This document shows positions 56,318-57,924 of a stretch of 64,000 nt of DNA, piece after piece. The translations under genes were made by a program, and so were the position numbers. The DNA is from Eledone cirrhosa (taxonomy: Eukaryota), in contig OZ024742.1 of NCBI GenBank assembly GCA_964016885.1, positions 303,242,001 through 303,306,000 of the forward strand. The letters run 5' to 3'. Position 1 is the first letter of the stretch. Every line of letters begins with the position of its first letter. The notes beneath the pieces were generated by a model. It did no database searches and was not told the DNA's origin. It saw only the letters and a list, made by a program, of their open reading frames with translations.

Positions 56318-56887
56318 ATATATATATAAACAACTATCTGGTTGTGGAACCAACCAACCAACCAGAAATTTATAAATTTGTAAATTTATAAATATTTAAT
56401 AAATTAAATTGAAGTGAAAGCAACTGGTGCGTGTGTTTCTTATTGGCAACATGACCCTCCCAAAGTATAACAATATCGGTTTCAACACACGATTTCAGAT
56501 AAAGAATCTTGCTAAACAAATTCAGAAACGAAATATATATATATATATGTATGTATATATATATATATATATATATATATATATATATATATATATATAT
56601 ATATATATATATATATATATATATATATATATATATATATATATATAATATATTTAGAAGCACACAGATACATGCGGACACACACATATATACATGAATG
56701 CATCCGCACCCAACTGTGAGTTAAGGGTGCCAACTTCACCGATGTTGCTCAATGAATGACTGGGACAGACTAATTCAGTTTGAACCAGACTGAACCAGTA
56801 TCAGAGTTAAAAATACATTATGAAGAGAGAAGAAACATTTAGATATAATTAGTAATAAAATGTATCATACCTAAACTGTTCCTAAAT

Positions 56888-56975
56888 TCCTCGACTACGT
56901 AGTTTCGTGGCATAAACAAAAACAATATATCCAAGATATAGAGTCCTTGCGAGGTCTGCCGACTTATCAAGAGGA
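56888..56975 (-). ncRNA. Type I hammerhead, U3-A8 core variant
   Basis: tcctc-TTGATAA-GTcGGCA..TGCCAC-GAAA-CTACGTAG-TC-gagga. Confidence 0.75.
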
Positions 56976-57478
56976 TACCTCATTTTACTAGTCTCAAGAA
57001 CGCGTCTACACGACGTGAGAAAAAATCCCAAAAGGCGGAGGGGGAGACAGTCACGCGATATAACGGTCGAGAAACAGAGCTAAGCCTCTTATAACCACGA
57101 AGAAAATACCACGGAGGCGGAGGGGGTATTCATATCGAGGCCGTAGAAGAGGTAGTGAAGAAGGCGAGAAGTATGAGTAATGGAAGCTTTCCAGTTGTCC
57201 CCACACTTCAAAGATTGCTCGACCAGAGGGAGTTATTAATATATTTAGAAACACACAGATACATGCGGACACACACATATATACATGAATGCATCCGCAC
57301 CCAACTGTGAGTTAAGGGTGCCAACTTCACCGATGTTGCTCAATGAATGACTGGGACAGACAAATACAGTTTGAACCAGACTGAACCAGTATCAGAGTTA
57401 AAAATACATTATGAAGAGAGAAGAAACATTTAGATATAATTAGTAATAAAATGTATCATACCTAAACTGTTCCTAAAT

Positions 57479-57566
57479 TCCTCGACTACGTAGTTTCGTG
57501 GCTTAAACAAAAACAATATATCCAAGATATAGAGTCCTTGCGAGGTCTGCCGACTTATCAAGAGGA
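57479..57566 (-). ncRNA. Type I hammerhead, U3-A8 core variant (second monomer)
   Basis: As 56888-56975, with one stem II substitution. Confidence 0.72.
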
Positions 57567-57924
57567 TACCTCATTTTACTAGTCTCAAGAACGCGTCTAC
57601 ACGACGATATATATGTATATATACATATATATATATATATATATATGTATATATGTATATATATATATATATATATACATATATACATATATATATATAT
57701 ATATATATATGTATATATACATATATACATATATATATATATATATATATATATATAATATGTTGAGAAGGTAACACACCAGAGAGAGATATATAGTGCG
57801 CTATCAATAATACAGGGAAAAAACCCACCAGTGTATGGAATCTATAACCTATGAAAGGCAGACTATAGACACGATAATTAAAAATATAAATTAAAGCGTA
57901 AATAAATACCTTTATAACTATATA

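Follow-up and report, generated by a model that had tools for sequence, protein, structure and literature searches.

A 591-bp tandem repeat with U3-A8 hammerhead-like motifs in Eledone cirrhosa, a likely non-LTR retrozyme associated with Penelope-like elements

Anatomy of the 591-bp repeat

The window, which is the whole 64-kb stretch of Eledone cirrhosa DNA that was analyzed, contains on its minus strand, at positions 56646-57606, a 961-bp insertion made up of 1.63 units of a non-coding 591-bp repeat with a GC content of 41.6%. In the direction of that strand, the insertion consists of a direct repeat of 370 bp (57237-57606), whose start is a truncation point lacking microhomology to the flank, a single-copy spacer of 221 bp (57016-57236), and a second direct repeat of 370 bp (56646-57015); the unit is closed by the junction of 57606 to 57016. 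The direct repeats are 98.9% identical, with four differences. This partial tandem carries two hammerhead-like motifs and is bordered by (TA)n on both sides. The tract at the 3' end (56533-56648) is the likely target and overlaps the 3'-end motif of the element by microhomology; the interrupted tract at the 5' end (57607-57757) is common to an adjacent ribozyme repeat of 544 bp. Stop codons are found in six of six frames of the unit read as a circle, and the longest ORF starting with ATG encodes 75 amino acids. No tRNA was found in the 64-kb window, nor does the element contain a B-box match, and a polymerase III promoter is therefore unsupported.

The hammerhead-like motifs are read from the minus strand as TCCTC-TTGATAA-57 nt-GAAA-CTACGTAG-TC-GAGGA, at 57566-57479 and 56975-56888, spaced 591 nt apart. 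This layout, including the palindromic helix III, had been described in an initial annotation and is present in both repeats. In motif 1 (57479-57566), which is of type I, the core UUGAUAA (57561-57555) is followed by a helix II arm of 57 nt, the GAAA (57497-57494), and the helix III palindrome (57494-57485), with the predicted cut after 57484. In motif 2 (56888-56975), the core lies at 56970-56964 and the predicted cut after 56893. Helix III is formed by the 10-nt palindrome ACTACGTAGT, located at 57485-57494 and 56894-56903. Viewed as type I hammerheads, both motifs have U3-A8 in place of C3-G8, together with G10.1-C11.1, A15.1-U16.1, the GUC triplet, and five of five pairs in helix I; U4, G5, A6, and A9, G12, A13, and A14, H17, and three helices are likewise present. 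The constrained local fold of the hammerhead lies 1.8-2.4 kcal/mol from the minimum, and helix II of motif 2 has one pair more than that of motif 1. The same annotation had helix II branched, whereas a single unbranched arm with internal loops is predicted; branched forms account for a fraction of 0.001 of 2000 structures sampled with G10.1-C11.1 enforced.

The two cut sites would delimit a monomer of 591 nt (56893-57483). The insertion had been taken for two monomers, which is right in so far as two motifs lie 591 nt apart, but with only 1.63 units it does not hold two full monomers. Its start precedes the first cut site by 123 nt, and its end lies 247 nt past the second. Since these ends are offset from the cut sites, the template was not a cut linear monomer but either an uncut multimer or a circle, with priming at an internal site.

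A descriptor for type I U3-A8 hammerheads returned two matches in the window, whereas 200 local dinucleotide shuffles gave 0.02 on average and never more than 1; both matches are copies of one sequence and thus count as one independent motif. The motifs are not returned by a CUGANGA descriptor run over the window. In Rfam, no hammerhead match reaches the gathering score in the whole window, and the 30 matches to the element up to an E value of 10, on either strand, include no hammerhead or other ribozyme and are sub-threshold simple-repeat matches. With one independent motif only and no Rfam hammerhead up to E 10, the motif might be ascribed to chance within an ordinary local duplication. This can hardly be entertained in view of the shuffle mean of 0.02 per window, of a stable fold confined to one strand, of the tandem joint seen in other sequencing runs, and of an end motif shared with other repeats.

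That CUGANGA-based searches would overlook motifs of this kind had been proposed from the start and is borne out at this locus by the descriptor and by Rfam, but the class had already been described in 2011 and 2014. Natural U3-A8 covariation in several hammerheads, cited as active in vitro, is presented by Perreault et al. 2011 (PMC3088659); the compensatory pair is the same as that found here, and animal tandem repeats are not the setting stated there. From Schistosoma mansoni, about 1,300 Penelope-linked type I U3-A8 motifs were obtained by means of a descriptor dedicated to them (PMC4209133; Cervera and de la Pena 2014), and the supplement of that paper contains UUGAUAA and UCC-UUGAAAA examples. 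The U3-A8 core itself is already known, and the 591-bp family is not an overlooked class.

Penelope-like elements, neighbouring ribozyme repeats, and the (TA)n junctions

The window is filled with Penelope-like elements, as judged from several ORFs with reverse transcriptase and GIY-YIG domains (Pfam matches weak, below the cut-off), and canonical hammerheads are found beside such ORFs. The Penelope-like element at 51607-56647 has a 2.1-kb inverted copy (98.4%) and canonical hammerheads at 56278 (plus strand) and 51972 (minus strand). The best match of the ORF of the Penelope-like element beside the 591-bp repeat is an Octopus vulgaris protein, with 67%. More Penelope-like ORFs, which are broken and have a linker rich in cysteine, occur at 29440-32433, 36003-38500, 40813-41057, 50798-51832, and 60761-62150, and hammerheads at 1084, 29546, 32345, 40965, and 63044, several of them ending in (TA)n. 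An inverted arrangement at 17112-17439 includes a hammerhead with canonical core (17273-17351) that is built like the 591 motif, with a long helix II and a palindromic helix III, ACTGATCAGT. A dispersed repeat of 150-220 bp, which we take to resemble an octopus SINE, is found at 12441-12900, 14939-15154, 15709-15912, 19875-19943, 21778-21973, 25497-25667, 33185-33298, and 44457-44534, and five of its segments contain the B-box-like sequence GTTCAAATC.

The 591-bp unit could lack a life cycle of its own and be a terminal repeat (pseudo-LTR) orphaned from an autonomous Penelope element located outside the window, the hammerhead serving that element. The U3-A8 cores of animals were first seen in Penelope repeats (PMC4209133), partial tandems as well as (TA)n targets are features of Penelope elements (PMC8557442), and pseudo-LTRs are described as homologous to retrozymes in Xenopus (bioRxiv 10.64898/2026.07.22.740005). 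The contigs of three sequencing runs have the unit joined head to tail with no ORF in between, the whole unit including the spacer folds as one stable RNA, and it contains no coding remnant; a pseudo-LTR origin is thus regarded as unlikely.

Two further families of ribozyme repeats reside in the window. The 556 family is represented at 18124-18792 and 20160-20935, the copy at 18124 having one ribozyme only. Its motif contains the same heptamer as the 591 motif and is missed by both descriptors demanding paired helices; whichever register was tried by eye, neither helix I nor helix III was free of a mismatch or bulge. Pairing of GAAAC and GTTTC across the cut site is possible in the 556 motif. 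The third repeat (57753-59187) has a unit of 544 bp, of which 2.35 units lie on the minus strand together with an inverted piece of 157 bp. It sits in the (TA)n tract adjoining the 591 element, and its motifs (58549-58469 and 58005-57925) have the canonical CTGATGA core and long helices II and III. The statement in the initial annotation that the rest of the 591 unit does not resemble the 556 unit holds, the alignment score being 25 compared with 30.2 ± 3.2 for shuffled sequences. Among the 591, 556, and 544 units, the shuffle maximum was exceeded in none of six comparisons.

At its 3' end, the 591 insertion runs into (TA)n with the motif TTCTAAATATATTA (56646-56659, minus strand), of which a second copy lies at 57237-57250 and which is preceded by a long predicted hairpin. 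The end motif TTCTMAANATATWA is found at the (TA)n junctions of three non-homologous ribozyme repeats, at 18135-18148, 56646-56659, and 57756-57769. Nine copies of this 14-mer are found in the window, each belonging to the 591, 544, or 556 family, with no exact occurrence outside of them; when one mismatch is allowed, there are three more matches, compared with 3.2 expected in all. TTCT(A/C)AA lies within 16 nt of (TA)n at 3 of 119 (TA)n junctions, each of which is a 3' end, namely that of the 591, of the 544, and of one 556 insertion. The end of the other 556 insertion is elsewhere, so that three out of four ribozyme-repeat insertions fit. The element TTCT(A/C)AA was defined post hoc, and part of its AT-rich half is accounted for by microhomology to the target; as the end motif was derived from these same sequences, its shuffle figure overstates the significance. 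TTCT(A/C)AA next to (TA)n is put forward as a candidate start signal of reverse transcription.

Predicted folding and copies in sequencing runs

The predicted 591-nt monomer folds with a z score of -4.83, equalled by none of 100 shuffles, compared with -0.75 for the opposite strand, and 62% of its bases are paired. For the circular unit the z scores are -5.82 and -0.70 for the other strand (25 shuffles each). Double-hammerhead pairing between adjacent monomers, as suggested in the initial annotation, is permitted by the palindrome, which would form a 10-bp duplex of -12.9 kcal/mol, compared with +1.5 kcal/mol for each hairpin. In the 961-nt precursor, however, the advantage of the double hammerhead over two single ones is no more than 1.8 kcal/mol; a double hammerhead is possible according to these models. 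Compared with the free fold of the precursor, the active folds are less stable by 13.6-15.4 kcal/mol, the probability of helix I in the natural context is at most 0.01 at 16 of 16 transcript lengths, and formation of the hammerhead in the circle costs 6.8 kcal/mol. The circle is predicted to block its own ribozyme. These figures speak against ready cleavage and point to a ribozyme that is blocked, regulated, assisted, or weak.

The disfavoured active fold would also agree with a retrozyme-derived repeat whose ribozyme is now weak or dead and which is copied without a circle, from uncut multimers of the transcript primed internally. One Penelope element could do without cleavage in vitro (PMC11167929), and most of the dimers tested in a study of retrozymes were inactive (bioRxiv 10.64898/2026.07.22.740005). 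Yet the core, G10.1-C11.1, A15.1-U16.1, and five of five pairs in helix I are intact, and three runs show no change in them, with copies too alike to prove selection; a repeat of this kind is considered quite improbable.

Half or more of the words sampled from the 591 unit are present in 10 runs, which come from six studies and bear seven organism labels. None of the listed runs carrying 591 words is given as RNA. Sequence comparison covered 4 of 24 listed runs (X1, X3, X6, and X22), with four rows of a word share below 0.2 left out. Three of the four (X1, X3, and X6, from three studies) yielded a contig about 99% identical to the window copy, with unchanged core and with 57606 joined to 57016. 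The contigs from X1 and X3 close on themselves (621 and 620 nt; kind of run unrecorded), which fits tandem DNA and a circle equally. After exclusion of five difference rows from simple-repeat matches at 57258-57270, the contigs differ from the window copy in seven places, none of them in the core. Two of these repair mismatches in a predicted stem, two keep a pair, one gives helix II an additional pair and agrees with the second window copy, one lies in a hairpin loop, and one has no assignment; seven is a small number, and the copies are too alike to prove selection.

A family consensus with CTGATGA would contradict the variant core, and the contigs of three runs from three studies contain no other core letter. 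The U3-A8 core is supported, at the level of sequence, as a trait of the family and not a product of decay. The initial annotation had also called on the recurrence of the two-base change in two families as an argument against decay. The unchanged 591 core in three runs agrees with it, but the families are perhaps not independent: the 556 and 591 motifs have in common TCCT before the core and TCGAGG after it. Given these common flanks, one inherited change is possible, and the 556 family offers weak independent support.

In the raw DNA reads of X22 (1938 million letters), nothing falls on the 591 unit except for a simple-repeat piece. X8, which has the same organism label (F) and study as X22, contains 0.59 of the 591 words. 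The lack of 591 reads in X22 would mean either that the copy number is very low or that the source is foreign. In another view, the 591 RNA is a viroid-like circle passing from host to host, which was captured into the genome by a Penelope enzyme. This would agree with the occurrence of at least half of the words in 10 runs, six studies, and seven organism labels, with three contigs that are about 99% identical, two of them self-closing, with the predicted blocking of the ribozyme in the circle, as in viroids, and with a label, F, under which one set of DNA reads is devoid of the unit and another run has it by words alone. On the other hand, neither a U3-A8 nor a C3-G8 core was found on the plus strand of the unit, while symmetric viroid-like circles have a ribozyme in both polarities. 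The coded labels may stand for close species, or the matches for cross-contamination; a closed contig is also expected from a tandem DNA copy; and the 3' motif and the layout are common to two resident families. A viroid-like origin is therefore deemed very improbable. Also unlikely to hold as a whole is a scenario in which unrelated ribozyme circles share UUCU(A/C)AA-AUAU, telling a single Penelope enzyme where to copy into (TA)n, and in which the self-blocked U3-A8 circle of the 591 family jumps between host species like a viroid.

A gapped core pattern matches at least 119 metagenome loci and 28 viral loci. Among the 147 matches listed, nine have at least three helix I pairs, and in none of these nine is the helix III closing pair present; the matches are read as chance, none of those listed resembling the 591, 556, or 544 unit. 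An exact 22-nt probe gave no match in prokaryote genomes.

Proposed route of propagation and comparison with known systems

Taking the evidence together, it is likely that the 591-bp repeat is a non-autonomous non-LTR retrozyme with a predicted type I U3-A8 hammerhead, probably copied into (TA)n by a Penelope-like reverse transcriptase. It has sequence features of that group, namely a type I hammerhead (with variant core) in both of its repeats, a head-to-tail tandem arrangement, the lack of coding capacity, a GC content of 0.416, i.e., below 50%, a self-paired monomer, and Penelope-like elements nearby. A ribozyme left free in the circle is a feature that it lacks, as indicated by the penalty of 6.8 kcal/mol. 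Within the window, no homology of the unit to Penelope terminal repeats was found, and this counts against the reading.

From the anatomy and the sequence conservation observed, we infer each biochemical step of the following route. The minus strand of the repeat would be transcribed by read-through, and the transcript would be cut at both GUC sites, either by single hammerheads or by a palindrome-mediated double hammerhead; because alternative folds dominate, cleavage is probably slow or helped by protein. The 591-nt monomer would then be ligated to a circle, in which refolding would block the ribozyme. A Penelope enzyme would nick (TA)n DNA, start reverse transcription inside the RNA at UUCUAAAUAUAUUA, and copy more than one round. 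The 1.63 rounds would eventually leave two ribozymes around one monomer, able to restart the cycle.

For metazoan non-LTR retrozymes a circle model has been proposed, with invertebrate circles of 170-400 nt (Cervera and de la Pena 2020, PMC7229834); in most metazoan circles the ribozyme is free, exceptions being reported from mussel (PMC7229834). The 591 repeat resembles these retrozymes in being a non-coding tandem with one type I hammerhead per unit, a GC content below 50%, no LTR features, and co-occurring Penelope-like elements. It differs by U3-A8, the helix II arm of 57 nt, a length exceeding that of the invertebrate circles, and the blocked ribozyme. Li et al. (bioRxiv 10.64898/2026.07.22.740005) describe units of 51-972 bp, a range that includes 591 bp, and a Penelope origin. 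Of nine predicted Xenopus retrozyme dimers in the same source, one was cleaved in vitro and eight were not, which is counted against the retrozyme interpretation of the 591 repeat.

The Schistosoma motifs are like those of the 591 repeat with regard to type I, U3-A8 covariation, and palindromic helix III (PMC4209133). These minimal hammerheads are explained there by a dimer model and have low activity in vitro; they possess almost no helix III and are mostly single. The 591 motifs are unlike them in having a helix III of 3 bp with a 4-nt loop, a short tandem unit, and no detected homology to Penelope repeats. The plant LTR retrozymes have direct repeats of about 350 bp, each with a hammerhead, and the ribozyme is blocked in the circle (PMC6765202, PMC7229834). 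Their type III ribozyme, PBS, PPT, and 4-bp target duplications are not seen in the 591 element. The latter is of type I and ends with CGTC...ATTA, not TG...CA; by eye, and thus with no tRNA comparison, no TGG as a sign of a PBS lies within 5 nt of the repeat end, and a target duplication is unreadable within (TA)n. For one Penelope enzyme, an internal start, AT-rich targets, and a protein-assisted ribozyme are documented, and insertion of the Penelope element in vitro did not need cleavage (PMC11167929).

In the titles and abstract openings of the literature surveyed, most subscription papers being outside its scope, no octopus retrozyme, no U3-A8 tandem retrozyme, and no shared 3' signal was mentioned. 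The combination of U3-A8, long helix II arm, self-blocked circle, and shared end motif sets the repeat apart as a variant within a known kind of element. As a consequence for the family at large, retrozyme counts obtained by Rfam or by canonical or minimal CUGANGA models alone are undercounts. The step at which copying starts is only a hypothesis in the papers cited here; if the end motif were found genome-wide, it would provide a direct test of which Penelope enzyme moves retrozymes and of where copying starts.
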